Assembly (NCBI RefSeq): GCF_964213995.1
Contig: NC_135829.1
Span: 17,608,001 to 17,672,000 of the forward strand
Source of the DNA: Mustelus asterias
Taxonomy: Eukaryota
DNA length: 64,000 nucleotides
Reading direction: 5' to 3'
The position numbers and the translations under genes are program-made. The notes below the pieces were generated by a model. It had not been told where the DNA came from and made no database searches. It was given only the letters and a program-made list of their open reading frames with translations. This document shows positions 31,181-56,579 of the stretch, in pieces. Every line of letters begins with the position of its first letter. Within the stretch, counting starts at the first letter, position 1.

Positions 31181-31290
31181 CAAGACAAATGAGATGTGTT
31201 AGAATCATGACTTTAAAAATCATCATAATTAGTTGGTATTAAAATACAATTTTCCAGTTTGCAGAAACAGATTTTAAAACTCTTGCTTAC

Positions 31291-31407: not shown

Positions 31408-31637
31408 CTACCGAGGAGAAGCAACATTAAATTCAGGCTGTGCAATCCAGTGTTCTACATACGGCTCATTGCACTGGCTACCAAACCTTCCCCTCAGAAT
31501 CTAGAATAGTCAATGGCGAAGGAAGGAAATTGAACCAATTTACAACGGGTACAAACTGTACAAACAGACCCAGAATCTCTCAGCTGGAGCTCCTGACATT
31601 GAATGATTCATGTTGCCGATTGTCTTACTTTTTAGAG

Positions 31638-33154: not shown

Positions 33155-33168
33155 AGAGACACACTCAC

Positions 33169-33252
33169 TGTTAGTCACTGGAGATATTCCAGATGTTGAG
33201 GTGAGGGCGTCTGGGGATTCACTACTTGAGATTGGACTCCTTGTTAACAGGT
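33169..33252 (-). CDS. Ig receptor copy 1, second Ser/Thr/Pro stalk exon
   Basis: ttatgtttctcag| ... |gtgagt; 84 nt, phase 1-1; DLLTRSPISSSESPDALTSTSGISPVTN. Confidence 0.75.
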
Positions 33253-33398
33253 CTGAGAAACATAACTTTCCAGTTAGAATCTGGAATGATAAATGACGAA
33301 CGATGGAAATTGAACCAGTTTACAACAGGTACAAAATCCCTCAGCTGGAATTATTGATATTAAATGATTTAAATCATATCGTGCATTGTCTGACTGAC

Positions 33399-33878
33399 CT
33401 TCATTATTTGTAGGAGTCTCACTGCTGGTCACTGGAGATATTCCAGATGTTGAGGTGTGAGTGTCTGGAGAGTCTGCACTTTTTGTCACACTGAGGGAGA
33501 TGTTTGCTCTAATCTTCCAGACAGGTTTCCCTGAGACCACACCGTGTACAACACAGAGATAGCTCCCAGTGTCCAACTCCTTCACTGAGTGAATAGTGAG
33601 GTTGTGAGTCTGGATTTTATTTGTAGGACTGTTTGAGCTTTGGTTGGAGATTCTTTGTGATGACTCTTTATCCACACAGCAGCGTGTGTTAGAATGTAAG
33701 CTATAACCCTCAATATGAACAGAGTGCAGACACTTGTTAACATTTCCAGATATGATCCAAAACAGAGTGAAGGGCAGAGATTTTCCATTCTCAAACTGGC
33801 AGGGTAAAGTCACATTCTCTCCCTCTGCTACAGTCAGTGACGAGAAAGTTTCAACAGCAGAAAATACTTCATCCGAAT
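33399..33878 (-). CDS. Ig receptor copy 1, IgV domain (D2) plus stalk exon
   Basis: attgtttctag| ... |gtcagt; 480 nt, phase 1-1; V-set hallmarks GENVTLPC, LFW, NLTI, DTGSYLC; extra Cys at 50, 67, 68. Confidence 0.92.
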
Positions 33879-34029
33879 CTAGAAACAATATTGAAAAGAA
33901 TAATTTTACTCAAATAATCTCCAACGCGGTACTTTGTCAAAGGATTTCCAAAAGTCCATGTTAACTACATTCACTGCATTTCTCCATCTACTTTGTCTGT
34001 TACCTCCTCAACAGTTTATCAAGCACATC

Positions 34030-35083
34030 GGGCAGAATTTTTCGTTCTTTTGTGGCCCGCCAGCTCCACTGCCGGCTTTTCCCACCATAATTTTTGATAC
34101 TTGTTCAAAATAAATCCAGGAGGTGGGTCCCAAATGTCACGCTGGCGGGGCAGCCACTGATTGAACCTGCCCCTCCAGCAACCTCAGACTTCAAGAGACC
34201 CGGCATCTTTCAAACCAAACCAATAAAAATAAGAGGGGATCCCACCGCCCCCCCCCCCCACCTCCACGGACATGGGGAGCCCCCTCCCTCCCACCGCCCT
34301 CCACTTCCACGCAGACACCCCTTCCCAGCGATGCCCCCATCACCAGGGAATACCATCTCCCACAGACCACCCCATTGGAGCCCACTCTCTCCGGCAATTC
34401 CCTCTGGCACTGCAGTGTCAGGAGATGCTGCCAGGACAGTTTCCAGGCATGACCCTCTACCCCCTTGAGGCTGTACTTCCTGTGCACCCAAGGAGGGTTC
34501 TCTTCGCCAGGTCCCTGTTTGCGCCATGGTGGCACAGCCGTTAGAACTGCTGCCTCACAGCGCCAGGGACCCGGGTTCGATTCCCGGCTTGGGTCACTGT
34601 CTGTGCGGAGTCTGCATGTTCTCCCCGTGTCTGCGTGGGTTTCCTCCGGGTGCTCTGGTTTCCTCTCACATTCTGAAAGATGTGCTGTTTAGGTGCATTG
34701 GCCGTGCTAAATTCTCCCTCAGTGTAACCCAAACAGGCGCCACACGGATTTTCGCAGTGGATTTTCACAGTAACTTCATTGCAGTGTTAATGTAAGCCTA
34801 CCTGTGACTGTAATAAATAAACTTTAAAACTTTAAACTGTTTGTCAAAAGCTGTTATAAACCCCACTGAAGCGAGGGGGGAAATTGAAGGGTAAGGGGAT
34901 ACTAGAGTGGGAAGCCCGTTAATGAGATTAAAATGTGTGGCAATGGGATTCCCGACCTTTCATGGCAGGAACTAACATCACAGACGGGAAATCCCGACTG
35001 CGTAAAAGCCATTTGGGGACTCCCGTTGATTCTCCGGCCCCACCGCCATTCCCACTGACCAAAAACGGGGGAAAATCCTGGCC
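34030..35083. mobile_element. GC-rich MITE-like repeat with V-SINE inserted at ~34525-34836 (paralog ~56730-57806)
   Basis: Imperfect terminal inverted repeats gggcagaattttt / aaaatcctggcc; non-coding. Confidence 0.45.
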
Positions 35084-35276
35084 ATCATCTTTGGAATCTG
35101 TCGGTTGCGTCTCAATTTTTACTCTTTATTTACATGCTTGATAATTTCATCTCCATAAAGAATCTATAATTGTCTCGAATGGCAGCTATCTGTCCTAATA
35201 CCTCCCCTAATATCTCAGCTTAAATCGTCCCAACGTCCCGCTGTGATAATTCCCCCGATATCTCCAGTTCACTCAC

Positions 35277-35675
35277 CGTCCGGGTTTATCACAAAGAACA
35301 AGTTGTGGTTTTCACATCCCTCCCCTGTCAGGGTTTTCCAGTTTGGACATTTTGATGATTCTGTGGAATCCTGAACCGTGCAGGTAAATATCATCGAATC
35401 ATCACATAGCATCACAGCGAATGTCAGTGAATTCATTTCACCTCCATTTCTTTTGCATGTTTGACACTGCAGCTTCTCTTTCTGTTTCTCATGATCGATA
35501 TTTTCACAATCCTGCATTTTCTTCGCTCCTGTCTCACATTGTATTTTCTCAATTTCTGCTCCAGCACTGAAATCCCGAATGCTGCACAAGGTTCCGACAT
35601 TCCCAGCACCAGTGGGTGTGTTGCATTGCAGAGTGGTGACATCTCCTGATCCTCGAAAATGGACATAGGTGGATC
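35277..35675 (-). CDS. Ig receptor copy 1, Cys-rich atypical Ig domain (D1) exon
   Basis: ccttatccctgcag| ... |gtgagt; 399 nt, phase 1-1, open frame; GDVTTLQC ... SLTF ... DDSMIFTC; 10 Cys. Confidence 0.85.
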
Positions 35676-36007
35676 CTGCAGGGATAAGGACAGAATTGGA
35701 TGGAGATAAACAACATTCCATACAGGAAAGATAATTAAACCTTAATGTTCATCAAAGCCTCGCACAGTAAGTGAGTCTGATTTAGAGATTCCCCCATCAC
35801 ACAGTCTGGATAGAGACACCCCTTCCCCCTCCCCACATTATTACACTGAGTCTAAAAACTCTCACACATGGGAGAAAGAGGATGGTTGAAGTTGTTGACG
35901 GAAGGCCAATCTTCAAATGCTTCATCAATCCCCTTCCCTCCATCATAAGTTACATGTGGGACTGTGACTGATGATTACACAATGTTCATTCTCCAATCAC
36001 TATTGAG

Positions 36008-36592
36008 TATTTGAGTATAGGAGTAAGGATGTCTTGCTGCAGTTGCACAGGGTCTTGGTGAGGCCACACCGTGAGTATTGTGTGCAGTTTTGGTCTCCTA
36101 GTCTGAGGAAGGGCATTCTTGCTATTGAGGGAGTCCAGCGAAGGTTCACCAGACGGATTCCCAGAATGGCAGGGCTGACATATGAAGAGAGACTGGATCG
36201 GCTGGGCTTGTACTCACTGGAATCTAGAAGAATGAGAGCGGATCTCATAGAAACATATAAAATCCTGATGGGACTGGACAGGCTGGATGCAGGAAGAATG
36301 TTCCCGATATTGGGGAAGTTCAGAACTAGGGGTCACAGTTTAAGAATAAGAGGTAAGCCATTCAGGACCCAGATGAGGAAGAACTTCATTCAGAGAGTTG
36401 TGAACCTCTGGAAGGGCCAGTTCGTTAGACATGTTCAAGAGGGAGCTGGATGTGGCGCTGGTAGTTAAAGGGTATGGAGAGAAAGCGGGAGTGAGATACT
36501 GAAAGTGCATGATCTGCCAGGACCATATTGAATGGTGGTGCAGGCTGAGGGGCCGAATGGCCTTCTCCTGTAGCTATTTTCTATGCTTCTAT
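36008..36592 (+). mobile_element. CR1 3' fragment (paralog ~58733-59313)
   Basis: ORF 36034-36468 LVRPHREYCVQFWSP...DLIETYKI. Confidence 0.88.
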
Positions 36593-36759
36593 TCCTCAGA
36601 TACTGAAGCAGTCCTTTCCCACATGAAGTAAGACCGACAGAACGTTCAGGCTTGGGCTGATAAGTGACACACGATATTCACATCACACAAGTGTCTGGAA
36701 AATGACTAACTCCAAAAAAAAGAGAGAATTCTTTCCTTCCAAAAGGTGTTTGATACAGA

Positions 36760-38215
36760 GCCACAAAACTGCTTTGTGAGCAGCTCCAGGAATAAGAGGG
36801 ACTTCAGCAACATGGAGACGGAATTGGCTGAGCGACAGAGAACAGCGAGCAGTGATTAATGGATGTTTTTCTTGCTGGAGGGAGGTTTGTGGTGGAGTTG
36901 TCCAGGGGTCAGTGTTGGAACCGTTGCTTTTCCCGATATCTATTGCTGACCTATAACTGGGTGGACAGGGCACTATTACAAAGTTTGCAGATGATCCAAA
37001 ATCTGGAAACTTTGTGAACTGTGAGGAGGAGTATCAAACTTCAAAAACACGTAGACAAGTTGGTGCCGTGGGCAGACGGGTGGATGATGCAGTTCAATGC
37101 GGAGAAGTGTGAGGTGATTCAATTTGGTAGCAAGAACATGGAGAGACAATGTAAAATAAAGGTTACAACAGTAAAATGGATGCAGGAGCAGAGGGAGCTG
37201 GGAGTATATGTACATATATCATTGAAGGTGGCAAGGCAGTTGGAGAGCAGTTAATAAAGTATACAGCAACCTGGGCTTTATTAATAATGGCATAGAGTCC
37301 AAGAGCAAGGAGGTGATGTGGAATTTCTATAAGACGCTAGTTTGGCCTCAGTTGGAGTATTGCTTCCAGTTCTGGGTGCTGCACTTTCATAGAATCATAG
37401 AAACCCTACAGTGCAGAAAGAGGCCATTCGGCCCATCGAGTCTGCACCGACCACAATCCCACCCAGGCCCTCTCCCCAGATATTTACCCACTAATCCCTC
37501 TAACCTACACATCCCGGGACACTAAGGGGAAATTTAGCATGGCCAATTAACCTAACCCGCACATCTTTGGACTGTGGGAGGAAACCGGAGCAACCGGAGG
37601 AAACCCACGTAGACATGAGGAGAATGTGCAAACTCCACCACAGACAATGACCCAAGCCGGGAATCGAACCCAGGTCCCTGGAGCTGTGAAGCAGCAGTGC
37701 TAACCACTGTGCTACCATGCCGCCACTTTAGGAAGGATGCGATGGCATTGGAGAGAATGCAGAATATTCATAAGAATGATTCCAGGGATGATGAAGATAG
37801 ATTGAAGAAGTTGGCATTGTTTTCCTTGGAGAAGAGAAGGCTGAGAGGAGATTTGATCGAGATGTTCAAAATCATGAGGGGTTTGCACAGTGTAGATAGG
37901 GAGAAACTGTTCCCACTCATGGAAAGATCGAGAATGAGGGGACACATTTAGAGTAATTAGTAAAAGAAGCAAACTGATACGAGGAGAAGCTTTTCATGCA
38001 GTGAGTAGTTAAGGTCTGGAATGCACTGTCTGAGAGTGTGGAGGGGGCAGTTTTATTGAAGCATTTGGAAAGGAATTAGACTGTTAACTGTAATGGAAGA
38101 TAGTGCAAGGTTACGGCGAGAAGGCAGAGGAATGGTATTAGGTGAGATACTCATTCAGAGAACCGGTGTGGACAGAATGGGCCGAATGGCCTCCTGCACC
38201 GTTACAATTCTGTGA
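36760..38215 (+). mobile_element. Degraded CR1 RT/3' fragment with V-SINE inserted at 37388-37723 (copies in each array unit)
   Basis: MQFNAEKCEVIQFG, RRLRGDLIEMFKIM remnants; SINE flanked by TSD cacttt. Confidence 0.85.
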
Positions 38216-38907
38216 TCTCCCCTTGATATTCAATAGCAGCAACATTGTCAAATCATCGCCAACATTCTCAAGGTTACCATTGACCATCTCCATGACACTG
38301 TGGCTACAAGAGCAGGTCACAGACTGGGAATTCTGTGATGTATCGTTCACTTCCTGAATTCCCAAAATCTTTTCAACTTCTACAAGACACAGGTCAGTTG
38401 TATTTTAACACAGAGACAAGAATATTGCCGTAGGGTCGGAGTGAAGGAGATGTACCAAGCATAATGGAGAGTGATGAAAATCTGGATTCAAAGGGATTTG
38501 ATCTGCCTGTAACACTGAACAACCCACTCCGATATGTAATGTATTTTAATTGTGGTTCTCTGCCAGAACTAACTGACCCACTCGCTCTCCTGTATCTTTC
38601 GCATCTCAAATTCTTATCCAATTCTCAGTTGAAATACAGAATGATCTCTGTCTCAAGCACTGCCTGTCAAAGTATTCCATTGCCCCAACAACTCTCTGTG
38701 TAAAGAATTGCTCCGAATCTCTCCCCACTCTCTGAATGACAATATCAAACTGATGCTCCATGGTTACACCATATTAAACAGACACAGCAAAGACTGTGAG
38801 TCGACTGTGTTAAACATCTACACAAGAACAGCAATGCTTCGAATCTCTCTGTTTTTCTTTCCAGGTGAGGAACATTTGGAAGATTAATGGAAAGTATTCA
38901 TCCTTAC

Positions 38908-38962
38908 CAGCAACATGTTGGAAGAGAAGAAAAAGACCCACAAACAAAGCACCGAGTGCCAT
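38908..38962 (-). CDS. Ig receptor copy 1, signal-peptide exon (proximal leader L1)
   Basis: gaaATGg start; MALGALFVGLFLLFQHVA g|gtaagg; phase 1, joins the D1 exon in frame. Confidence 0.88.
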
Positions 38963-38999
38963 TTCAGATTCCTAGACCGTGCTTGCTGAGTGGTGGTTG

Positions 39000-39080
39000 C
39001 GTTCTTACTTCCCTATCTGTGAGAGAGAAGAGAAGCTGAACTTCTCGAAATGGCGTGAGAGATAATAGCTTCCTGTTTGA
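39000..39080 (-). promoter_or_regulatory. Putative TATA-less promoter region with ETS and GATA motifs (similar in all four leader modules)
   Basis: GGAAGT at 39012-39007, AGATAG at 39018-39013, AGATAA at 39060-39065, ACAGGAAG at 39076-39069, just upstream of the ATG. Confidence 0.45.
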
Positions 39081-39315
39081 CCAACTTAGGTGAAATGTGG
39101 GCTCTGATGTTGTGTTAATGCAACCGGGGCAGCAGTTGAGATGTTCGTTTGACCCTCCAACCAGAGACGTCACAGAAAGCTCCGAAATACAAAGAGCGGA
39201 ATTTAATGAAAAGAATTCAAAGTTCTGAACGAGTGAGAAAACAGGAGAGAAGCAAACGGGATTTGGGACGAGCTGTGAGTCACAATCTTATTGCTGTTCG
39301 TGCAAAATAAGAGCC

Positions 39316-40080
39316 AGGATGCGATTCTCGCCAATAGTGGGTGGAGCGGAGCCTAATCTCACCGGTGAAGCCGGCTACTGAGCTCATGAGGCACCATCCC
39401 GCAGGTGCTCCGATCTTCCTATCTACGCTCTCCCCATCAGTTGCTCCCTGTGTTGGTCTCCCCTGCCCCATCACCACATATATCAGCACCCCCCCGCCCC
39501 TCAATCCCCCGCTTTGCTGAGTTTCCTCCAGCCCCCCAATTGCCCATTCTGAAGTGTTTGTCCCCTCCCATTGCCCCCATTGCAGAGTTCCTCCCACTCT
39601 CCAATCCCCCCTTTGTGGACATTCCTCCACTAACCCCTTCAATCGTCACGGCTGCAGAGTTGCTCACTGCCCTCCACTGTGGAGCTCCCTCCCATTGCCT
39701 CCCCCCTCCCCTTTCCCCACCTCACTCATGCCCAAACCCCCTTAGGACCTGCCCCTTTAGCACTGCCCCTGGCATTCCCAGGATGCCTGGTTGGGCACTG
39801 CCAGGCTGGCACTGCCCAGGGGGCGTGGCCCGGCCCAGTCCCCGACAACCCGCTGATGGAGACCAGCTGTGATTCTCGCTGGTGGGGACCCCGACTGGTG
39901 AGTAGGTCAGGGCAAGTGAACCTGGACCATAGGGTCCCGGACTCACTCATGACAGTTCAATGATGTCTTTGATATTTCTGGGCGCAAAGCTAATGTCGTC
40001 GGCAAAACCGTGCCGGTGGATCAGGAGAGGCGAGAAACCAGGCATAAAACCAGTCTGGGGAGCCGGGAAGATTGCACCCA
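39316..40080. mobile_element. GC-rich MITE-like repeat upstream of leader (copies in each unit)
   Basis: Imperfect terminal inverted repeats ggatgcgattctc / gaagattgcaccc; C-rich non-coding interior. Confidence 0.4.
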
Positions 40081-43000
40081 AAGTGTACATTCTGCGTGTG
40101 CTTCTGTGCATCATGATGAGAGTGCGTAACACCGGAGCAGAGATATCAACACACCCCGCGCCCAAAGCATGATGGAGATACTAACCATCTGGAAACACAA
40201 GGACCAGGATTTTCCAGTCTCGCCATGCTTGGCGCAGAGCGATCTCCAGGAGCCCCAATGGAATTAAGTTCCGAGCTGGCAGTGGGAACCCTGCTGCTGA
40301 GCTCCCGGCTCCAGGGGAAACATTAATTTGCCAGATGTTACCCAGTCGGTTGGCAATTCCGCTCCTGAGAACCAATCAGAGGCTGGCAGCTCCCCATTGT
40401 TGGCAGCACCACCGGGCGCCGTCTCTGCAGCTGGTAATCCAACCGAGCCTTCACCAGGGGGTCATCGTGGGGGGCCCTGGAGAAGGACAAGTGCTGGATG
40501 GGATGGGGGCTGTGGGGAGTGGTTTGGTAGTAAGGGAGGGGTAATGGGTGGGAGGAAAGAGTGGGGGATGGTGACTCTCAGCAGGCCCCCTCTCCCATTC
40601 CCGATGCCAGATCCCTTGATCTTGTGCTGAGTGACAATAAGCACCTCCCACTCCACACTTGGCCACAAGCAAACCTGACAGGGATAGTTTGTCAACCTCC
40701 CCAGATGGCGAGTCCCCCACCCGCTATGGGTTGAATACCAGTGACAGTCGGATGAAGCCGTGAGTTGCTCAGTCAAAGGCGTCAATCGGTATCCGGTGGG
40801 AAGGTTGCCCAGAGCCTTCCTGTTCCAGATTAAACTGGGTGGAGGCAGGGAAGCAGCAGGGGCCATATCCCACACCCTTAGAGCCGAACAATTGCACCCT
40901 CCCCTTCCTCTCCCTCTCCCCATCACCATCCACACCCTGAGAACTTGCCTTGGAGGTGAAGCATTCCGTTCTGTCCCACTGCATCTAAACAGTGGAAGTG
41001 CATGATACTCCATCACTGTCTTTAACCACTATCTCAGCAAAGAAACAGGAAACATTGGAACTTCAGCCACTGTGGGCCATTCAGTCCCTGTATTTAGTTT
41101 GAGTTCATTGCATTTTTGCCTCAGTTTTCTCCTCTTGAGTCTCTCACTCTTCCTGTGTGAGCGTGGGTTAGAAATGGCTGCACGTTGTGTGATGTTGGGA
41201 CCATCACAACCCCACACCCTGATCATGTTCAATGTGCATGGGCAAAGCAGAACCAGTAAGCCATTCAGACCCTTGAGCCTGTTCGTCCTTTCAATCAGAG
41301 CATGATAAATCTTCGCCATAACTCCATGTATCTCCCTGTGCCCCAAATTCCTTGGAACCCTTGACTGACCAAATGTTATCAGTCTGTGCCTTGCAGGCTC
41401 GAGTTATCCCCCCGTGTCCACAGCATTTTGGGACAAAACAGTTTCAGATTTCCACTATCCCGAGTGGTAAAAAAATGCTTCTTGATTTCAAATTGAGATG
41501 ATGAATCTCTAATTTTAAGATTACCTTCCCCTGTTTTTCATCTGTATCGACTCTGTCAAATAATTTGAACACTGGAATGGATAAAGGATTGGTAAACTAA
41601 CAGGGAATACATACTGAAGCAGTCCTTGCCCACATGAAGTAAGACCTACACAACGTTCAGGCTCGGGCTGATAAGTGACACGCGACATTCACATCACACA
41701 AGTGTCTGGAAATGATTAACTCCAAAAGTAGAGAGAATCGTTTCCTTCCAAAAGGTGTTTGATACAGAGCCGCAAAACTGCTTTGTGAGCAGCCCCAGGA
41801 ATAAGAGGGACTTCAGCAACATGGAGACGGAATTGGCTGAGCGACAGAGAACAGCGAGCAGTGATTAATGGATGTTTTCCTTGCTGGAGGGAGGTTTGTG
41901 GTGGAGTTGTCCAGGGGTCAGTGTTGGAACCGTTGCTTTTCCCGATATCTATTGCTGACCTATAACTGGGTGGACAGGGCACAATTACAAAGATTGCAGA
42001 TGATCCAAAATCTGGAAGCTTTGTGAACTGTGAGGAGGAGAGTATCGAACTTCAAAAATACGTAGACAAGTTGGTGCCGTGGGCAGACGGGTGGATGATG
42101 CAGTTCAATGCGGAGAAGTGTGAGGTGATTCAATTTGGTAGCAAGAACATGGAGAGACAATGTAAAATAAAGGTTACAACAGTAAAATGGATGCAGGAGC
42201 AGAGGGAGCTGGGAGTATATGTACATATATCATTGAAGGTGGCAAGGCAGTTGGAGAGCAGTTAATAAAGTATACAGCAACCTGGGCTTTATTAATAATG
42301 GCATAGAGTCCAAGAGCAAGGAGGTGATGTGGAATTTCTATAAGACGCTAGTTTGGCCTCAGTTGGAGTATTGCTTCCAGTTCTGGGTGCTGCACTTTCA
42401 TAGAATCATAGAAACCCTACAGTGCAGAAAGAGGCCATTCGGCCCATCGAGTCTGCACCGACCACAATCCCACCCAGGCCCTCTCCCCAGATATTTACCC
42501 ACTAATCCCTCTAACCTACACATCCCGGGACACTAAGGGGAAATTTAGCATGGCCAATTAACCTAACCCGCACATCTTTGGACTGTGGGAGGAAACCGGA
42601 GCAACCGGAGGAAACCCACGTAGACATGAGGAGAATGTGCAAACTCCACCACAGACAATGACCCAAGCCGGGAATCGAACCCAGGTCCCTGGAGCTGTGA
42701 AGCAGCAGTGCTAACCACTGTGCTACCATGCCGCCACTTTAGGAAGGATGCGATGGCATTGGAGAGAATGCAGAATATTCATAAGAATGATTCCAGGGAT
42801 GATGAAGATAGATTGAAGAAGTTGGCATTGTTTTCCTTGGAGAAGAGAAGGCTGAGAGGAGATTTGATCGAGATGTTCAAAATCATGAGGGGTTTGCACA
42901 GTGTAGATAGGGAGAAACTGTTCCCACTCATGGAAAGATCGAGAATGAGGGGACACATTTAGAGTAATTAGTAAAAGAAGCAAACTGATACGAGGAGAAG

Positions 43001-43921
43001 CTTTTCATGCAGTGAGTAGTTAAGGTCTGGAATGCACTGTCTGAGAGTGTGGAGGGGGCAGTTTTATTGAAGCATTTGGAAAGGAATTAGACTGTTAACT
43101 GTAATGGAAGATAGTGCAAGGTTACGGCGAGAAGGCAGAGGAATGGTATTAGGTGAGATACTCATTCAGAGAACCGGTGTGGACAGAATGGGCCGAATGG
43201 CCTCCTGCACCGTTACAATTCTGTGATCTCCCCTTGATATTCAATAGCAGCAACATTGTCAAATCATCGCCAACATTCTCAAGGTTACCATTGACCATCT
43301 CCATGACACTGTGGCTACAAGAGCAGGTCACAGACTGGGAATTCTGTGATGTATCGTTCACTTCCTGAATTCCCAAAATCTTTTCAACTTCTACAAGACA
43401 CAGGTCAGGAGTTGTATTTTAACACAGAGACAAGAATATTGCCGTAGGGTCGGAGTGAAGGAGATGTACCAAGCATAATGGAGAGTGATGAAAATCTGGA
43501 TTCAAAGGGATTTGATCTGCCTGTAACACTGAACAACCCACTCCGATATGTAATGTATTTTAATTGTGGTTCTCTGCCAGAACTAACTGACCCACTCGCT
43601 CTCCTGTATCTTTCGCATCTCAAATTCTTATCCAATTCTCAGTTGAAATACAGAATGATCTCTGTCTCAAGCACTGCCTGTCAAAGTATTCCATTGCCCC
43701 AACAACTCTCTGTGTAAAGAATTGCTCCGAATCTCTCCCCACTCTCTGAATGACAATATCAAACTGATGCTCCATGGTTACACCATATTAAACAGACACA
43801 GCAAAGACTGTGAGTCGACTGTGTTAAACATCTACACAAGAACAGCAATGCTTCGAATCTCTCTGTTTTTCTTTCCAGGTGAGGAACATTTGGAAGATTA
43901 ATGGAAAGTATTCATCCTTAC

Positions 43922-43976
43922 CAGCAACATGTTGGAAGAGAAGAAAAAGACCCACAAACAAAGCACCGAGTGCCAT
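43922..43976 (-). CDS. Orphan leader exon L2 (unit lacks gene body)
   Basis: Identical MALGALFVGLFLLFQHVA exon with intact GTAAGG donor. Confidence 0.7.
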
Positions 43977-46900
43977 TTCAGATTCCTAGACCGTGCTTGC
44001 TGAGTGGTGGTTGCGTTCTTACTTCCCTATCTGTGAGAGAGAAGAGAAGCTGAACTTCTCGAAATGGCGTGAGAGATAATAGCTTCCTGTTTGACCAACT
44101 TAGGTGAAATGTGGGCTCTGATGTTGTGTTAATGCAACCGGGGCAGCAGTTGAGATGTTCGTTTGACCCTCCAACCAGAGACGTCACAGAAAGCTCCGAA
44201 ATACAAAGAGCGGAATTTAATGAAAAGAATTCAAAGTTCTGAACGAGTGAGAAAACAGGAGAGAAGCAAACGGGATTTGGGACGAGCTGTGAGTCACAAT
44301 CTTATTGCTGTTCGTGCAAAATAAGAGCCAGGATGCGATTCTCGCCAATAGTGGGTGGAGCGGAGCCTAATCTCACCGGTGAAGCCGGCTACTGAGCTCA
44401 TGAGGCACCATCCCGCAGGTGCTCCGATCTTCCTATCTACGCTCTCCCCATCAGTTGCTCCCTGTGTTGGTCTCCCCTGCCCCATCACCACATATATCAG
44501 CACCCCCCGCCCCTCAATCCCCCGCTTTGCTGAGTTTCCTCCAGCCCCCCAATTGCCCATTCTGAAGTGTTTGTCCCCTCCCATTGCCCCCATTGCAGAG
44601 TTCCTCCCACTCTCCAATCCCCCCTTTGTGGACATTCCTCCACTAACCCCTTCAATCGTCACGGCTGCAGAGTTGCTCACTGCCCTCCACTGTGGAGCTC
44701 CCTCCCATTGCCTCCCCCCTCCCCTTTCCCCACCTCACTCATGCCCAAACCCCCTTAGGACCTGCCCCTTTAGCACTGCCCCTGGCATTCCCAGGATGCC
44801 TGGTTGGGCACTGCCAGGCTGGCACTGCCCAGGGGGCGTGGCCCGGCCCAGTCCCCGACAACCCGCTGATGGAGACCAGCTGTGATTCTCGCTGGTGGGG
44901 ACCCCGACTGGTGAGTAGGTCAGGGCAAGTGAACCTGGACCATAGGGTCCCGGACTCACTCATGACAGTTCAATGATGTCTTTGATATTTCTGGGCGCAA
45001 AGCTAATGTCGTCGGCAAAACCGTGCCGGTGGATCAGGAGAGGCGAGAAACCAGGCATAAAACCAGTCTGGGGAGCCGGGAAGATTGCACCCAAAGTGTA
45101 CATTCTGCGTGTGCTTCTGTGCATCATGATGAGAGTGCGTAACACCGGAGCAGAGATATCAACACACCCCGCGCCCAAAGCATGATGGAGATACTAACCA
45201 TCTGGAAACACAAGGACCAGGATTTTCCAGTCTCGCCATGCTTGGCGCAGAGCGATCTCCAGGAGCCCCAATGGAATTAAGTTCCGAGCTGGCAGTGGGA
45301 ACCCTGCTGCTGAGCTCCCGGCTCCAGGGGAAACATTAATTTGCCAGATGTTACCCAGTCGGTTGGCAATTCCGCTCCTGAGAACCAATCAGAGGCTGGC
45401 AGCTCCCCATTGTTGGCAGCACCACCGGGCGCCGTCTCTGCAGCTGGTAATCCAACCGAGCCTTCACCAGGGGGTCATCGTGGGGGGCCCTGGAGAAGGA
45501 CAAGTGCTGGATGGGATGGGGGCTGTGGGGAGTGGTTTGGTAGTAAGGGAGGGGTAATGGGTGGGAGGAAAGAGTGGGGGATGGTGACTCTCAGCAGGCC
45601 CCCTCTCCCATTCCCGATGCCAGATCCCTTGATCTTGTGCTGAGTGACAATAAGCACCTCCCACTCCACACTTGGCCACAAGCAAACCTGACAGGGATAG
45701 TTTGTCAACCTCCCCAGATGGCGAGTCCCCCACCCGCTATGGGTTGAATACCAGTGACAGTCGGATGAAGCCGTGAGTTGCTCAGTCAAAGGCGTCAATC
45801 GGTATCCGGTGGGAAGGTTGCCCAGAGCCTTCCTGTTCCAGATTAAACTGGGTGGAGGCAGGGAAGCAGCAGGGGCCATATCCCACACCCTTAGAGCCGA
45901 ACAATTGCACCCTCCCCTTCCTCTCCCTCTCCCCATCACCATCCACACCCTGAGAACTTGCCTTGGAGGTGAAGCATTCCGTTCTGTCCCACTGCATCTA
46001 AACAGTGGAAGTGCATGATACTCCATCACTGTCTTTAACCACTATCTCAGCAAAGAAACAGGAAACATTGGAACTTCAGCCACTGTGGGCCATTCAGTCC
46101 CTGTATTTAGTTTGAGTTCATTGCATTTTTGCCTCAGTTTTCTCCTCTTGAGTCTCTCACTCTTCCTGTGTGAGCGTGGGTTAGAAATGGCTGCACGTTG
46201 TGTGATGTTGGGACCATCACAACCCCACACCCTGATCATGTTCAATGTGCATGGGCAAAGCAGAACCAGTAAGCCATTCAGACCCTTGAGCCTGTTCGTC
46301 CTTTCAATCAGAGCATGATAAATCTTCGCCATAACTCCATGTATCTCCCTGTGCCCCAAATTCCTTGGAACCCTTGACTGACCAAATGTTATCAGTCTGT
46401 GCCTTGAAGGCTCGAGTTATCCCCCCGTGTCCACAGCATTTTGGGACAAAACAGTTTCAGATTTCCACTATCCCGAGTGGTAAAAAAATGCTTCTTGATT
46501 TCAAATTGAGATGATGAATCTCTAATTTTAAGATTACCTTCCCCTGTTTTTCATCTGTATCGACTCTGTCAAATAATTTGAACACTGGAATGGATAAAGG
46601 ATTGGTAAACTAACAGGGAATACATACTGAAGCAGTCCTTGCCCACATGAAGTAAGACCTACACAACGTTCAGGCTCGGGCTGATAAGTGACACGCGACA
46701 TTCACATCACACAAGTGTCTGGAAATGATGAACTCCAAAAGTAGAGAGAATCGTTTCCTTCCAAAAGGTGTTTGATACAGAGCCGCAAAACTGCTTTGTG
46801 AGCAGCTCCAGGAATAAGAGGGACTTCAGCAACATGGAGACGGAATTGGCTGAGCGACAGAGAACAGCGAGCAGTGATTAATGGATGTTTTCCTTGCTGG

Positions 46901-48592
46901 AGGGAGGTTTGTGGTGGAGTTGTCCAGGGGTCAGTGTTGGAACCGTTGCTTTTCCCGATATCTATTGCTGACCTATAACTGGGTGGACAGGGCACAATTA
47001 CAAAGATTGCAGATGATCCAAAATCTGGAAGCTTTGTGAACTGTGAGGAGGAGAGTATCGAACTTCAAAAATACGTAGACAAGTTGGTGCCGTGGGCAGA
47101 CGGGTGGATGATGCAATTCAATGCGGAGAAGTGTGAGGTGATTCAATTTGGTAGCAAGAACATGGAGAGACAATATAAAATAAAGGTTACAACAGTAAAA
47201 TGGATGCAGGAGCAGAGGGAGCTGGGTGTGTATGTACATATATCATTGAAGGTGGCAAGGCAGTTGGAGAGCAGTTAATAAAGTACACAGCAACCTGGGC
47301 TTTATTAATAATGGCATAGAGTCCAAGAGCAAGGAGGTGATGTGAAATTTCTATAAGACGCCAGTTTGGCCTCAGTTGGAGTATTGCTTCCAGTTCTGGG
47401 TGCCGCACTGTAGGAAGGCTGCGATGGCATTGGAGAGAATGCAGAATATTCACAAGAATGATTCCAGGGATGATGAAGATAGATTGGAGAAGTTGGGATT
47501 GTTTTCCTTGGAGAAGAAAAGGCTGAGAGGAGATTTGATCGAGGTGTTCAAAATCATGAGGGGTTTGCACAGTGTAGATAGGGAGAAACTGTTCCCACTC
47601 ATGGAAAGATCGAGAATGAGGGTATAAATTTAGAGTAATTAGTAAAAGAAGCAAACTGATATGAGGAGAAGCTTTTTCATGCAGTGAGTAGTTAAGGTCT
47701 GGAATGCACTGTCTGAGAGTGTGGAGGGGGCAGGTTTATTCAAGCATTTGAAAAGGAATTAGACTGTTAACAGTCAAGGAAGATAGTGCAAGGTTACGGG
47801 GAGAAGGCAGAGGAATGGTATTAGGTGAGATGCTCATTCAGAGAACCGGTGTGGACAGAATGGGCCGAATGGCCTCCTGCACCGTTACAATTCTGTGATC
47901 TCCCCTTGATATTCAATAGCAGCAACATTGTCAAATCATCGCCAACATTCTCGAGGTTACCATTGGCCATCTCCGTGACACTGTGGCTACAAGAGCAGGT
48001 CACAGACTGGGAATACTGCGAGTTGTAGCTCACTTCCTGAATTCCCAAAACCTTTCCAACTTCTTCAAGACACAGGTCAGGAGTTGTATTTTAACACAGA
48101 GACATGAATATTGCTGTAGAGTTGGAGTTATGGAGATGCACAAAGTGTGGCCAAGAGTGATGGAAATCTGGATTCAAAAGGATTTGATCTGCCTGTAACA
48201 CTGAACCACCCACTTCTATATGTAATGTATTTTAATTGTGGTTCTCTGCCAGAAGTAACTGACCCACTCGCTCTCCTGTATCTTTCGCATCTCAAATTCT
48301 TATCCAATTCTCAGTTGAAATATAGAATGATCTCTGACTCAAGCACTGCCTGTCAAAGTATTCCATTCCCCCAACAACTCTCTGTGTAAAGAATTGCTCC
48401 TAATCTCTCCTCACTCTCTGAATGACAATATCAAACCGATGCTCCATGGTTACACCATATTAAACAGACACAGCAAAGACTGTGAGTTGACTGTGTTAAA
48501 CATCTACACAAGAAAGCAATGCTTCAAATCTCTCTGTTTTTCTTTCCAGGTGAGGAACATTTGGAAGATTAATGGAAAGTATTCATCCTTAC

Positions 48593-48647
48593 CTGCAACA
48601 TGTTGGAAGAGAAGAAAAAGACCCACAAACAAAGCACCGAGTGCCAT
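48593..48647 (-). CDS. Orphan leader exon L3 (unit lacks gene body)
   Basis: Same peptide, gca g|gtaagg donor; surrounding unit more diverged than L1/L2. Confidence 0.7.
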
Positions 48648-49692
48648 TTCAGATTCCTAGACCGTGCTTGCTGGGTAGTGGTTGCGTTCTTACTTCCCTA
48701 TCTGTGAGAAAGAAGAGAAGCTGAACTTCTCGAAATGGCGTGAGAGATAATAGCTTCCTGTTTGACCAACTTAGGTGAAATGTGGGCTCTGACGTTGTGT
48801 TAATGCAACCAAGACAGCAGTTGAGATGCTTGTTTGATCCTCCAACCAGGGACGTCAGAAAAAGCTCCGAAATACAAAGAATGGAATTTCATGAAAAGAA
48901 TTCAAAGTTCCGAACGAGTGAGAAAATGGGAGAGGAGTGAGCGGGTTTTTGGGTTAAGCTGCGAGTCACAATCTTATTGCTCTTTGTGCAAAATAAGAGC
49001 CAGGATGCGATTCTCGCCAGTAGTGGGTGGAGTGGAGCCTAATCTCACTGGTGAAGCCGGTTACTGAGCTCATGGTGCGCCATTGCGCTGGTGCCCTGAT
49101 CTCCCGGCGTACACTCCCCCATCAGTTGCTCCCTGTGTTGGTCTCCCCACCACCCCCAATCACCACATATATTGGCACCCCCACCCCTCAATCCCCCGCT
49201 TTGCTGAGTTTCCTCCAGCCCCCCAATTGCCCACTCTGAAGTGTTTCTTCCCTCCCATTGCCCCTATTGCAAAAATCCTCCCACTCTCCAATCCCCCCTT
49301 TGAGGAGATCCCCACACAAACCCCTTCAATCGTCATGGCTGCAGAGTTGCTCACTCCCCCACTGTGGAGCTCCCTCACATTGCCTCCCCCCTCCCATGTC
49401 CCCACCTCACTCAGGACCAAACCCCCTCAGGACCTGCCCCTTTAGCACTTCCCCTGGCATTCCCATGGTGGCAGTTGGGCACTGCCAGGCTGGCACTGCC
49501 CAGGGGGTGTGGCCCGGCCCAGTCCCCGACAACCCACTGATGGAGACCAGCTGTGATTCTCACCGGTGGGGATCCGGACCGATGAGTAGGTCAGGGCAAG
49601 TGAACCTGGACCATAGGGTCCCGGACTCACTAATGACATTTAAATGATGTCTTTGATATTTCTGGGCACAAAGCTGATATCGTCGGCAAAAA

Positions 49693-50038
49693 GGGGCGGC
49701 ACAGTAGCACAGTGGTTAGCACTGCTGCTTCACAGCTCCAGGGACCTGGGTTCGATTCCCGGCTCGGGTCACTGTCTGTGTTGAGTTTGCACATTCTCCT
49801 CGTGTCTGCGTGGGTTTCCTCTGGGTGCTCCGGTTTCCTCCCACAGTCCAAAGATGTGCGGGTTAGGTTAATTGGCCATGCTGAATTTACCCTTAGTGTC
49901 CCGGGTTGCGTAGGTTAGAGGGATTAGCGGGTAAATATGTAGGGATATGGAGATAGGGCCTGGGTGGGATTGTGGTCGGTGCAGACTCGATGGGCCCGGT
50001 GGCCTCTTTCTGCACTGTAGGGTTTCTATGATTCTATG
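49693..50038 (+). mobile_element. V-SINE insertion specific to unit 3
   Basis: Absent at the equivalent site ggcaaaaccgtgcc in the units at ~40001, ~45014 and ~62725. Confidence 0.88.
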
Positions 50039-51909
50039 AAAACCATGCCGGTGGATCAGGAGAGGCGAGAAACCGGGCGTAAAATCGGTCTGGGGAGCCG
50101 GGAAGATTGCACCCAAAGTGTACATTCTGAGTGTGCCTCTGTGCATCATGATGAAAGTGCGTAACACCGGAGCAGACATATCAACACATCCCGCTCCCCC
50201 AGCATGATGGAGATACTAACCATCTGGAAACACAAGGACCAGGATTTTCCAGTCTCGCCGCTCCTGGCTCAGAGCGATCTCCAGGTGCCCCAAAGGAATT
50301 AAGTTCCCAGCTGGCAGTGGGAACCCTGCTGCTGAGCTCCCGGCTCCAGGGGAGACATTAATTTGCCAGACGTTCCCCAGTTGGGTGGCAATTCCGCTCC
50401 TGAGACCAATCAGAGGCTGGCAGCTCCCCATTGTTGGCAGCACCACCGGGCGCCGTGTCTGCTGCTGGTAATCCAACCGAGCCTTCACCAGGGGGTCATC
50501 GTGGGGGCCCCTGGAGAAGGACAAGTGCTGGATGGGATGGGGGCTGTGGGGAGTGGTTTGTCAGTAAGGGAGGGGCAATGGGTGGGAGGAAAGAGTGGGG
50601 GATGGTGACTCTCAGCAGGCCCCCTCTGCCATTCCCGATGCCAGATCCCTTGATCTTGTGCTGAGTGACAATAAGCACCTCCCACTCCACACTCGGCCAC
50701 AAGCAAACCTGACAGGGATAGCTTTCAATCTCCCCAGATGGTGAGTCCTCCACCCCAGCCCCAGCTATGGGTTGAATACCAGTGACAGTCGGATGAAGCC
50801 GTGAGTTGCTCAGTCAAAGGCGTCAATCGGTATCCGGTGGGAAGGCAGCCCAGAGCCTTCCTGTCCCAGATTAAACTGGGTGGAGGCAGGGAAGCAGCAG
50901 GGGCCATATCCCACACCCTCAGAGCCAAACAATTGCACCTCCCCCCGCCCCCCCCCCCCCCGCTCATCTCACCTTCCTCTCCCCCTCCCATTCACCATCC
51001 ACACCCTGAGAACTTGCCTTGGAGGTAAAGCATTAAATTCTGTCCCACTGCGTCTAAACAGTGGAAGTGCATGATACTCCATCACTGTCTTTAACCAGTA
51101 TCTCAGCAAAGAAACAGGAAACATTGGAACTTCAGCCACTGTGGGCCATTCAGTGCCTGTATTTAGTTTGAGTTCATTGCATTTTTGCCTCAGTTTTCTC
51201 CTCTTGAGGCTCTCACTCTTCCTGTGTGAGCGTGGGTTAGAAATCGCTGCACGTTGTGTGATGTTGGGACCATCACATCCCCACACCCTGATCATGTTCA
51301 ATGTGCATGGGCAAAGCAGGACCAGTAAGCGCAGGAGGAGGCCATTCAGCCCCTCGAGCCTGTTCGTCCTTTCAATGAGACCATGGTAAATCTTCACCGT
51401 AACTCCATGTATCTCCCTTTGCCCCAAATCCCTTGGAACCCTTGACTGACCAAATGTTATCAGTCTATGCCTTGAAGGCTCCAGTTCTCCCACAGAGTCC
51501 ACAGCATTTTGGGACAAAAGTTTCAGATTTCCACTAGCCTTGGTGGTAAAAAAAATGCTTCTTGATTTCAAATCGAGATGATGAATCTCTAATTTTAGAA
51601 AAAAACATGGAAAAACTACAGCACAAACAGGCCCTTCGGCCCACAAATTTTAATTTTAAGAGTATCTTCCCCTGTTTTTCATCTGTATCGACTCTGTCAA
51701 ATCATTTTAACACTGGAATGGATAAAGGATTGGTAAACTAACGGGAAACAATGAAACAGGATAAATGGGATATTTTCAGGTTGGCAAAGAGTAACTAGTG
51801 AAGTGATTGGCAATTCAAAGCTTAAAGCCAGTGTCGTAACCTCGCTGGGGTCAATTGATTTATTCCATTAGATTGGGATAAAATTCCTACTCAGCTCATC
51901 ATTTCATTA

Positions 51910-52197
51910 TCATTTCAAAGCAATCATTTATTGAGTGACTTCCCATCGCATGAGTTGCATGTTGTGTATAATAAGCAGCAGAGCATTGTTCTGTCCATGG
52001 CGAGGGTTGGGTGGGGTGGGAAATTGATCTTTGAAACTTCAGGACAATCTGTGAAAGCTGAGCAGTGGCTTATCGCAGGATGGGTGAGAAGATTTCTCTG
52101 CTCTTCAAGCAACTTCCACATCACAAGCTGTGAAAACACATCTGACATTGAGGAGCTCGGTCACATTGCCCATGTTCACGGTCCCTCTGCCCTCTCT
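51910..52197 (-). other. Ig receptor copy 2, terminal exon (3' UTR, or alternative tail ERGQRDREHGQCDRAPQCQMCFHSL* ending 52121)
   Basis: Acceptor cttctcttatccag|; minus-strand AATAAA at 51932-51927; 3' end approximate. Confidence 0.65.
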
Positions 52198-52347
52198 CTG
52201 GATAAGAGAAGAGATCACATTGAATGGGTTCCAGTTCAGGCCGGGGACAAATCATGAAATGGCACTGTGATGTCACATGGGATAACGGAGCCTTAGATAC
52301 AGCGCCGACTGGGAGGATTATACTCAAACAGTGAAACTACTTACATT

Positions 52348-52379
52348 TTAATTCTTGAACTTCACATTTGCCTCTGTCA
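52348..52379 (-). CDS. Ig receptor copy 2, cytoplasmic micro-exon VTEANVKFKN* (exon 52345-52379)
   Basis: Identical to the copy 1 exon and splice sites. Confidence 0.75.
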
Positions 52380-53978
52380 CTAAGAATACAGAAAACAAAA
52401 CAGGTGAAATATTTAATAACATATACTTCAAACAATGTCAAACATCTGGAAGTGGGATTTGGCATTTTTAAGTCAAGATCTCCCAAAACTCGATTGATTC
52501 AGGAATTATCCCTCTGGATTGGAATGCTGCCATTGTTATTCCATAATTTCAGATGGGTAGGATAGAGAAAGCAGAAAATAATAGAGCTGTTAGTCTGATG
52601 TCTGTTGTGGGGAAGTTACTAGGATCTGCTACTGGAACTCAAGATCAAAAGATTTAGGAGCAAGAGTGTAGGCCATTCAGGCCCTTAAGCCTGCTCAGCC
52701 ATTGGCTGATCTAATTGTGGTCTCATCTCTACGATCCTCTCTGCTTCATACAACCTCGTCCACCAGGAATCCTCGAACTCAATGCAAACATGTAAGTTCC
52801 TTCTAACAAACCTAGTTTAATCTAATAAGTGGTTCCCTAATTTGGTTGATAAGGGAGTGCATTTGGATGTGACCCATGTAGATTTCTAGACAGAACTCAA
52901 TAAAGTTCCACACAAGAGGCTGTCATCAAAAATAAAGTGTATGGAATTGGAGGCAATGACGTGAATATGAAATTGGTTAGGAAGTATAGAAGGCAGACAA
53001 TAGGGACAATAGGTATATAGTCACATTGGCAGGATGTAAATATCAGTATCTCCCCGAACCCCAGCATTTCACTATATTTATAAATGACTTAGATAAAGCA
53101 ATAGCGACCTGGATATCTAAGCTTGCTGATGACACCAAGGCACATTAAGTAGTGTAGACTGCAGTCACAAGGGGACATTGATGGATTAAGTGTGTTAGCA
53201 AATTGGCAGCGACAGAGTTCAAAGTGGGGAAGTGTAAAGACATCATCCACATCGCACCCAAGACTGCTCAGAGTATTTCGAAATGGTGAGAAGCTTAGAA
53301 CTCTGGAGGAGCAGAGAGGGAATTAGGGTTCATTCATGTAAATCACTAAAGGTTCATTGACAGGTACATAGAATGATGAAAAAGGCTGATGGGATGTTCA
53401 CCCATCTCACAGAGGCTGGAGTACAAAGGGGTAGAAGTTATGCTCCAGTTCTGGGCACTGCACTTCAGGAAAGTTAATTTGATGAACAGAGATTCATCAG
53501 GATGCTAAAAGGAATAAATTATGGGGTTGGGTTTACATCAGGATTACATCAGGAAGGTCGATAGAAACTGCTACCTCTGCTGTGAGAGTCTAAAATCAGG
53601 AGAGCCATCCGTGAGGTTAGTGCAGGGCTGTACAGAAAGCACATCAAAGGGTAATGAAAATCTGGAACTCTCTCCCCAAAGGGTGTTAGTTTGGGGATCA
53701 ATTGAAAATGTCCTCGGTGAGACTGATAGGTTTTCTATGAGGTATATGAAGGGATGTGGAACCAAGGTGAGCGAATGGAGTAAAGATAGAGATAAAATTA
53801 AAATTAAATTTTAATTAAATGGCAGAACAAGCTCGATGGGCTGAAAGGTCTCCTCCTGTTCCCATGATCAAGACAAATGAGATGTGTTAGAATCATGACT
53901 TTAAAAATCATCATAATTAGTTGGTATTAAAATACAATTTTCCAGTTTGCAGAAACAGATTTTAAAACTCTTGCTTAC

Positions 53979-54095
53979 CTCTGGCAGATTGTTGTCCTCT
54001 TCTGATTATGCAGATTACTCCATTAGAGCAAATTAATGCAGCCACATACAAAACCAGGATACCTACACGCATGGAACTGCAACTGGTGTCAGGAC
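53979..54095 (-). CDS. Ig receptor copy 2, transmembrane exon
   Basis: Identical to 31291-31407. Confidence 0.85.
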
Positions 54096-54325
54096 CTACC
54101 GAGGAGAAGCAACATTAAATTCAGGCTGTGCAATCCAGTGTTCTACATACGGCTCATTGCACTGGCTACCAAACCTTCCCCTCAGAATCTAGAATAGTCA
54201 ATGGCGAAGGAAGGAAATTGAACCAATTTACAACGGGTACAAACTGTACAAACAGACCCAGAATCTCTCAGCTGGAGCTCCTGACATTGAATGATTCATG
54301 TTGCCGATTGTCTTACTTTTTAGAG

Positions 54326-55859
54326 TATCAAGAAGCAGAGGTAATTTTAAGTGTTTGTACCGTTGGATATTAGAAATGAGTTATAGATTTACATGAGTTT
54401 AGTGTTCCTGTATAAGGAAAGGTAAACCTCCAGTTAGATTCATATTAAACAATGTTTGCTTGTATGGGGGGATTTTTTAGAATCATAGAATCCTACAGTG
54501 CAGAAGGAGGCCATTCGGCCCAGTGAGTCTGCACCAAACACAATCCCACTTTATTCCCATAACCCCACATATTTACCCTGCTAATCCCCCTGACACGAGA
54601 GTCTATTTATCATGGCCAATCAACCGAACCCGCAAATCTTTGGATTGTGGGAGAAAACCGAAGCACTCGGAGGAAACCCACCCAGACACTGGGAGAATGT
54701 GCAAACCCCACACAGACAGGAATTGAACACAGGTCCTTAGTGCTGTGAGGCAGCAGTGCTAACCACTGTGATACCATTTCAGTTCAAACTGTGGTAGCAT
54801 TATGCTAAGAGTGTTTACAGCGTGTAAAATAGATAAGAGCTTAGAGAAAGAATTAGATGTTGTTTAGCAACCAAGGTTCACTTATAGGGGAAGAGACCTC
54901 ACTGTGTTCTTAGTTTAACTGAGCCAGAGTAGAAGGAGCTTCACAGTGAGAGAGGGAACATCTCTCACTGCTTTGCCAGAAAAAAAGCCATATAAAAATA
55001 GAGTAACGGGCAAACAAGCAAGTGTCAGAAATCTAAAAACAGCCAGTTAAGGAGGATGAAGAGAAGTCTCCAGGAAGTCTGAAGTTAAAGGAACAGAGGA
55101 AACTGGAACGAGGTTACAGACAGAGTTGAGAAGCTGAAGAGTTTGCTAGTGAAAAACAGAGATATCTGAAATTATTTCAAGATATGTGAGATTTGCTACA
55201 GCCTGTGAAGTGATAGTTGAAGCAATTGTGAAGTAATTAGTGACTGGATCTTTTAGTGTTTGTGTGAAAGCTTGAAAGCATTCAAGACAAAGGAACATTG
55301 AACCGAGAGCTATAAAACTTCGAAGTGGATCCTTGTTGGGAAAGGGTGATTGAAATAATTGTTTGAAAGAAGATTCTAAAGTGTGTCTTTTTGAGAGTGG
55401 GGTTTGGAATCACTCATGTGGAAGTCAGAGTCCAGTAAGATCAGTTGGCTCATGGTGTGAGAATCATCTGGGGGGATTTGAGAAGAAGTCCACAGAAGTT
55501 CACTTGGGTGGCATCTGCCACTTGGTTTCAGAATGGAGTGTGTTTGACCACAGTTAGCCTGTGGTTTAAAGGGATTGTGTGTTTCGTGAGACCATTATAG
55601 CATAAGATATATCTTGTAACCTCTGTCATCCTTAAAATCCATGTATATTTGTGAAGATAAATGGGAGTGAAAGAGTATTGTATTATAGTCAAACTTTTCA
55701 TGTTCAATTAATGTTTTCTGTTGTTAAAAGCTAATTGTTAGTCCTGTGACTCTCTTCATTCCCATTTTCTAAAAGATATGTAAAAGTTACGGTCTTTTGA
55801 GCCAAGGTTCCATTTGGGATCTTCCGGTCCAAGTAGTAACATACACAGGGGCTGTAACA
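54326..55859 (+). mobile_element. Solo LTR-like element with 4-bp TSD (V-SINE inside, ~54478-54776)
   Basis: TSD agag at 54322-54325 and 55860-55863; ends ggggctgtaaca; starts tatcaag (possibly a decayed TG). Confidence 0.72.
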
Positions 55860-55869
55860 AGAGATACAC

Positions 55870-55953
55870 TGTTAGTCACTGGAGATATTCCAGATGTTGA
55901 GGTGAGGGTGTCTGGGGATTCACTACTTGAGACTGGACTCCTTGTTACCTGGT
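55870..55953 (-). CDS. Ig receptor copy 2, second stalk exon (donor weak; may be skipped or read through)
   Basis: Acceptor ttatgttcctcag|; DQVTRSPVSSSESPDTLTSTSGISPVTN; the in-phase donor position reads GTGTAT. Confidence 0.5.
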
Positions 55954-56099
55954 CTGAGGAACATAACTTCCCAGTTAGAATCTGGAATGATAAATGACGA
56001 ACGATGGAAATTGAACCAGTTTACAACAGGTACAAAATCCCTCAGCTGGAATTATTGATATTAAATGATTTAAATCATATCGTGCATTGTCTGACTTAC

Positions 56100-56579
56100 C
56101 TTCATTATTTGTAGGAGTTCCACTGCTGGTCACTGGAGATATTCCAGATGTTGAGGTGTGAGTGTCTGGAGAGTCTGCACTTTTTGTCACACTGAGGGAG
56201 ATGTTTGCTGTAATCTTCCAGACAGGTTTCCCTGAAGCCTGACCGTGTACAACACAGAGATAGCTCCCAGTGTCCAACTCCTTCACTGAGTGAATAGTGA
56301 GGTTGTGAGTCTGGATTTTATTTGTTGGATTGTCTGAGCTTTGGATAGAGATTCTTTGTGATGACTCTTTATCCACACAGCAGCGTGTGTTAGAATGTAA
56401 GCTATAATCCTCAATATGAACAGAGTGCAGACACTTGTTAACATTTCCAGATATGATCCAAAACAGAGTGAAGGGCAGAGATTTTCTATTCTCAAACTGG
56501 CAGGGTAAAGTCACATTCTCTCCCTCTGCTACAGTCAGTGACGAGAAAGTTTCAACTGTAGAAAATACTTCATCCGAAT
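56100..56579 (-). CDS. Ig receptor copy 2, IgV domain (D2) plus stalk exon
   Basis: 480 nt, canonical |gtaagt donor; 10 aa differences from copy 1. Confidence 0.92.

Follow-up and report, generated by a model that had tools for sequence, protein, structure and literature searches.

In a stretch of 64,000 nucleotides from the shark Mustelus asterias (contig NC_135829.1, positions 17,608,001-17,672,000; hereafter the window), a receptor gene of the immunoglobulin superfamily is preceded by extra copies of its own promoter and leader exon that have no gene body attached. Protein matches identify the gene as M. asterias RefSeq LOC144480428, encoded on the minus strand with the exon order leader, D1, D2, stalk exon, transmembrane (TM) exon and last exon. 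The question raised by this locus is whether the body-less copies, which carry leaders L2 and L3 and read as duplicates of the receptor promoter, the leader exon and the first 2.3 kb of intron 1, serve the gene as alternative first exons. From a spliced contig in which a leader with L3 letters is followed by D1, we lean toward the reading that gene copy 1 uses L3 as an alternative first exon, which splices to copy-1 D1 and gives the same protein. L2 is likely a recent dose copy, and possibly polymorphic.

Arrangement of the leader modules

The array consists of the following features, in window positions.

28341..28905, spacer S0, the 3' flank of copy 1; every module is closed by this sequence
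28906..36598, minus strand, gene body 1, the block missing from the body-less modules
35277..35675, minus strand, D1 exon (cysteine-rich), with the shared acceptor at 35675
36600..41056, minus strand, module M1, comprising leader L1, its promoter, upstream DNA and the 5' portion of intron 1
38908..39020, minus strand, leader L1: ATG at 38962, GCT, donor GTAAGG; 5' end putative
39059..39076, minus strand, ETS core and GATA site of the M1 promoter
41057..41610, spacer S1, ending at the spacer-intron junction
41611..46069, minus strand, body-less module M2, a hybrid that is M3-like to 42059 and M1-like from 42103
43922..44034, minus strand, leader L2: ATG at 43976; identical to L1
46070..46623, spacer S2, with 1/554 differences from S1; second junction
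46624..51125, minus strand, body-less module M3, 5.75% from M1
48593..48705, minus strand, leader L3: ATG at 48647, GCA; agrees in its letters with the spliced X4 contig
51126..51750, spacer S3, the 3' flank of copy 2
51751..59319, minus strand, gene body 2, exons open; D1 at 58398-58000
59320..63781, minus strand, module M4 with leader L4
Exon end at 61632, minus strand, leader L4: ATG at 61686, GCA
63782..64000, start of spacer S4, which joins the body-less M5/L5 just past the window
Contig ~17672339-17676803 (window-equivalent 64339-68803), body-less M5/L5; L5 ATG at window-equivalent 66367

Self-alignment and probes gave the plus-strand order spacer-body1-M1, spacer-M2, spacer-M3, spacer-body2-M4, which is the order that the original prediction had drawn from the sequence. 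At 41610/41611 and 46623/46624 the spacer end is fused to intron-1 sequence equivalent to 36600, in agreement with the direct spacer-to-leader joins predicted at ~41601-41611 and ~46614-46624. The block missing at both junctions (~7.7 kb, 28906-36598) contains D1, D2, the stalk, the TM exon, the last exon and both AATAAA hexamers; its absence was also foreseen, but the wording that it had been removed describes only one of two possible origins. Probes for D1, D2 and the TM exon matched in the bodies only, with no downstream exon between the first exons, and no D1 or later exon lies between L3 and the D1 acceptor, which is at 35675 as predicted. Each module has AATAAA/ATTAAA hexamers in its intron piece, and M3, which is without the intronic short interspersed element (SINE) of M1, has its own 351-column insertion upstream. 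Past the window the pattern continues with a spacer, the body-less L5, another spacer, an isolated 3' gene end and a long-tailed paralogue of the receptor; L5 is a third body-less leader, intact, which lies above gene copy 2 and shares the junction of L2 and L3. A genome search with leader and promoter returned the five modules and the leader of the paralogue, and the other 34/40 scored matches were a short repeat at the query end.

All five leaders (5/5) have the ATG, the same 18-codon signal peptide and a donor end in which the last exonic G is followed by GTAAGG. The ETS core (CAGGAAG) and the two GATA sites, names that we take as consensus labels, are kept in 5/5 modules, and the ETS core is retained also in the otherwise diverged promoter of the long-tailed paralogue. 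L2 and L3 therefore retain the ATG, signal peptide, GTAAGG donor and ETS/GATA motifs claimed for them, and L3 is, as claimed, intact in a more diverged unit (M3). The only variation in the 55 leader coding bases is the synonymous GCT/GCA. Since 5/5 leaders encode the same peptide, the claim that leader choice leaves the protein unaltered stands. GCT in L1 and L2 and GCA in L3 were correctly read, but GCA fails as a diagnostic base, because L4 also has GCA; a G at 38989 occurs in L3 only.

The two body-less promoters in the window differ in what they could add. Because the exon and promoter of L2 are identical to those of L1, L2 could raise dose but cannot diversify expression, and the part of the prediction in which it would do so is not upheld. 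L2 would supply a second L1-type promoter, for dose only. L3, whose proximal promoter differs from that of L1 at 26/200 sites, would supply a diverged promoter, and diversified expression through it is possible.

Leaders joined to D1 in spliced contigs

The run search listed 20 D1-containing runs, 0 of them recorded as RNA, and 4/21 listed runs were compared with the L1 leader and promoter. The data are assembled contigs, and runs X1 and X4 were taken as RNA solely since their contigs are spliced. The leader-D1 join was read from 30-letter loose contig ends, with no aligned stretch containing both leader and D1. Runs X1, X4 and X6 gave one contig each that ends at the donor and then enters D1 sequence, and in the genome-sized DNA run X2 the sequence proceeds from the leader into the intron. 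Run X6 is from another organism and is uninformative on the M. asterias modules.

The contig of run X4 (record 9, 199 nt, depth 6) has two differences from L1 over 38910-39020, one listed as the L3-only G at 38989 and the second placed at 38992 by inference, and its loose end reads T at 38909 (GCA), then D1 from the acceptor onward. Over this span, two differences from L1 are predicted for L3, five for L4 and four for L5. Its D1 letters are of the copy-1/2 type and not of copy 3. The contig of run X1 (depth 15.7, same sample as run X4) has 0 differences from L1 over 38907-38991, and its leader, with GCT and of the L1/L2/L5 type, is on the same D1 acceptor. Therefore, two leader types are spliced in this one sample. 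Since the assembly has only three D1 copies and five modules, all in the cluster, a processed copy cannot account for the join. With body 2 situated upstream of L3, cis-splicing from L3 in the assembled haplotype reaches only the body 1 acceptor at 35675. The distance of 12.9 kb from L3 to 35675 is within the range of the family, since the first intron of the long-tailed paralogue is 16.3 kb. The prediction of alternative first exons has support for L3, from the letters of the X4 contig, and is not informed by the contigs for L2, which is identical to L1. In this contig, diagnostic leader bases of the L3 type are followed by D1 letters that would fit copy 1 or copy 2.

Several points weigh against the use of L3 by copy 1. 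The support is one contig of depth 6 from one sample, and the runs are not recorded as RNA. Positions 38909 and 38989 lie 80 bases apart, and the assembled path may fuse an L3 5' untranslated region (UTR) to an L4-derived junction; even for a fused path, the L3-only base is in the transcript pool. The contig stops at D1 base 85, short of base 214, the first at which copies 1 and 2 can be told apart, and it fixes neither body nor haplotype. In run X2, an L3-like promoter has 5 differences from L1, as compared with 9 in the assembled L3, and two further records have loose ends absent from the assembly; a body with an L3-type leader attached directly may thus exist in another haplotype or individual. 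The use of L2 is not visible, and since L2 is identical to L1 it would be indistinguishable from that of L1 in RNA. Finally, while the 61 coding and donor sites had 0 orphan-branch changes against a background of 7.7%, as selection would produce, 297/4559 equal windows were likewise change-free, so clean leaders are weak evidence of function; the probability of seeing zero private change is 0.23 in M3 and 0.14 in M5.

In an opposite reading, birth-and-death turnover in a tandem immune cluster left the spare leaders behind as inert relics, and the L3-type RNA comes from a body-attached allele on another haplotype, such as the reciprocal product of the L2-forming crossover. The L3-like and other module alleles in run X2 that are missing from the assembly, the other debris in the cluster (the isolated 3' gene end at window-equivalent 69367-71737) and the unexceptional conservation of the leaders all fit such relics. 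However, the L3/L5 lineage has one old junction and L3 alleles are body-less by default, so that a body-attached L3 needs a further crossover, for which we found no evidence, and the visible letters of the X4 contig agree with the assembled L3. We consider inert relics unlikely, though a serious competitor of L3 use.

Run X2 also bears on the cluster as a whole. Its records 4, 5 and 8 are module variants absent from the assembly, two of them seemingly deleted near the leader or promoter, and the structure of the cluster therefore likely differs between haplotypes or animals. Depth in run X2 was considered as a test of L2 (per-copy depth 15.6-25.7 with M2 vs 16.8-43.6 without, hence more even with M2) and set aside because contig depth is no copy number and record 8, used in this comparison, differs from the assembled L3.

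The stack could also lower output instead of adding to it. The 5' UTRs of L2 and L1 contain an acceptor-like tract (44030-44048 and 39016-39034) with 14/15 pyrimidines before CAG. If upstream transcripts spliced into this tract (AG/44030, AG/39016), the predicted product would have a 35-codon upstream open reading frame whose stop falls one base ahead of the next ATG; upstream transcripts could also simply traverse the downstream promoters. The pyrimidine content of the tract, the predicted frame and the hexamers in the intron piece of every module favor this dampening, as does the lower expression of a Drosophila gene with nine first exons in the available text of PMC1904467. In the X4 contig, however, a single leader is joined directly to D1, and a leader-to-leader join was found in no contig examined. 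Dampening appears improbable, and we keep to L3 as a likely alternative first exon of copy 1.

The X1 contig stops at 38991, one base before an L1/L5 difference, and the X1 and X4 contigs both stop at D1 base 85, just short of a position where copies 1 and 3 differ (by one base). These end points hint weakly at transcription of L5 as well. The start of the X4 contig (39020 plus one unlike base) was considered as a transcription start and set aside, since contigs cannot show starts. RefSeq has two accessions each for isoforms X3 and X6 of the gene, which is compatible with alternative UTRs, although their coordinates are not visible.

Duplication history and known parallels

Divergence between modules is 0.4% for M1-M2, 3.05% for M1-M4, 5.75% for M1-M3 and 6.42% for M3-M5. 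M3 and M5 share their junction and 93 sites against M1 and M4, and both are without the intronic SINE of M1, M2 and M4. From this sharing we infer that the body-less state arose once and is older than the split of the two bodies, which differ by 2.9% (233/8096 columns, spacer included), a value that gene conversion may have lowered. M2 matches M3 at 18/19 informative sites left of the 37048-equivalent and M1 at 247/248 sites right of it. This switch reads as the signature of an unequal crossover in a shared intron piece resembling a long interspersed element (LINE), and L2 as a very young hybrid from it. To the right of the crossover, one substitution and two small indels are all that separate M2 from M1 over 4.5 kb. 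Such closeness would also be expected if L2 were an assembly duplicate and the true stack had two leaders, not three. This is among the least probable explanations that we considered, given that M2 is a clean hybrid with a junction, an M3-like left end and a private base at the 36785-equivalent; L3 and L5 are unaffected either way.

The modules would then have formed in three steps. One old rearrangement would have made the first spare leader, the cluster would have been duplicated, and L2 would have come from a recent unequal crossover in which the LINE-derived intron pieces of M1 and M3 recombined. As to the first step, the junction fits body loss from a full copy and a 5-kb partial tandem duplication equally well.

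The mechanism is already known from plant and fly genes. According to PMC3527215, the promoter, exon 1 and part of intron 1 of Arabis alpina PEP1, a plant transcription factor, are tandemly duplicated; both exon-1 copies (PEP1a and PEP1b) splice to one exon 2 for the same protein, as proven by 5' rapid amplification of complementary DNA ends, the two copies are differentially expressed, and the structure varies between individuals. The M. asterias array likewise consists of same-strand tandem copies that include the promoter, exon 1 and a stretch of intron 1. Unlike in PEP1, one shark body has three leaders and the next has two, the first exon encodes the signal peptide only, and the evidence of use is one contig. 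For Drosophila hydra, PMC1904467 describes nine tandem first exons that arose as exon 1 was repeatedly duplicated together with flanking transposon DNA; these are near-identical, distinguished by a few 5' UTR bases, and at least four are used. The hydra gene with nine first exons is expressed at a lower level than in a sibling species, and extra first exons therefore need not raise RNA. Unlike hydra, a young testis gene with short units, the shark has units of 5 kb within a tandem cluster of whole immune-receptor genes. The shark anatomy fits the PEP1/hydra type, and shared splicing is supported, not proven.

The variable exons of UGT1, GCNT2 and protocadherin have their own promoters, splice to a common exon and encode different protein domains. 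A UGT1/PCDH-type cluster is ruled out here, since all shark leaders give an identical 18-residue peptide. Tandem variable first exons upstream of shared exons are reported, in the part of the source available, for UGT1, GCNT2 and protocadherin (PMC1885805).

A broader role for the stack, as a promoter dial of variable copy number that acts on the activating member of an undescribed shark paired-receptor family, is speculative and in our judgment doubtful. Unequal crossover would gain or lose 5-kb promoter-leader cassettes, old diverged cassettes would fire in different leukocytes, and haplotypes would thereby tune the activating-to-inhibitory balance with the protein untouched. If the reading of L3 as an alternative first exon is true, the locus would be a vertebrate immune-gene example of promoter stacking by partial duplication, captured at two ages (the near-identical L2 vs the ~6% diverged L3/L5), with built-in diagnostic bases that permit testing the effect of extra promoters on dose or cell type. 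Titles and abstract starts in the literature, with most subscription papers outside this scope, gave the plant and fly precedents and the UGT/PCDH clusters, and no stack of identical leaders in a vertebrate immune receptor.

Short- and long-tailed receptors

The remaining features of copy 1 are as follows.

33399..33878, minus strand, D2 exon: immunoglobulin (Ig) V-set domain and stalk
33169..33252, minus strand, second Ser/Thr stalk exon, which some RefSeq isoforms skip
31291..31407, minus strand, TM exon of the short-tailed receptor
29014..29538, minus strand, last exon (VTEANVKFKN-stop), starting from 29538, and two AATAAA hexamers

The hexamers at 29082 and 29014 are presumably the poly(A) signals of copy 1. 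The assembly has three D1/D2 pairs, two in the short-tailed copies of the window and one in the long-tailed paralogue. The latter, LOC144480561, lies ~36 kb past copy 2 (window-equivalent 80200-110950), has five tail tyrosines and shares 93% identity with the short-tailed gene in the ectodomain (residues 20-290). Homologues were from sharks only (10/10 and 19/19 matches in two protein searches), and several sharks have both a long form with tyrosine motifs in the tail and a short form. The two forms read as a paired-receptor family that is apparently undescribed, with LOC144480428 as its short-tailed partner and with activating and inhibitory roles presumed for the short and long forms, respectively. 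The literature listings did not name such a shark family, which may merit its own description.

Short-tailed activating partners of paired receptors have a charged TM residue. The short form of four other sharks (P0008, P0009, P0016, P0035) has Asp in the TM segment (CIDG/CLDG), and M. asterias P0001 has Asn (CSNG) with the Arg ahead of the TM segment kept; the Asn in place of Asp may change adaptor binding. The inhibitory-type motif of white shark P0003 and horn shark P0029, LPYSVV, is canonical under the definition (S/I/V/L)xYxx(I/V/L) of the ITIM, the tyrosine-based inhibitory motif of immunoreceptors (PMC12151841). The M. asterias tail has LPYSVF and four other tyrosines, with 0 strictly canonical ITIMs. 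Among paired Ig-like receptors, CEACAM1/3 and CD300A/C serve for comparison (PMC5112662, PMC12447643, both as available in part). As in these pairs, the shark neighbours have near-identical ectodomains, one with a long tail with tyrosine motifs and one with a short tail. Unlike in these pairs, the matches are from sharks only, orthology is unsupported, and the TM Asp of the short forms of other sharks is Asn here.

D1 had no Pfam family match and no PDB sequence match better than E 0.6, and its predicted fold is of low confidence (predicted local distance difference test <50, residues 12-160), with an Ig fold unsupported. Identity with PD-1 was rejected because the tail motifs (I/V)(D/E)Y(A/G)(E/V)L(D/E)F and (T/V)EYATIx(F/Y) are absent from P0001 and P0002; the resemblance to the PD-1 fold and in the atlas is that of a generic V-set at ~20% identity.

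A repeat insertion present in copy 1 only (31049-31168) provides the alternative tail of RefSeq isoforms X1/X4. In copy 2, the second stalk exon (55870-55953) has an altered donor, GTGTAT vs GTGAGT, and no copy-2 protein is among the RefSeq proteins examined. The isolated 3' end at window-equivalent 69367-71737 belongs to another short-tailed gene and lies downstream of the long-tailed gene; it comprises the last exon only, with no TM exon found in it. The introns of the long-tailed gene contain two 4.7-kb elements (window-equivalent 82156-86865 and 103049-107760), 95.7% identical and with long gag/pol-like frames.

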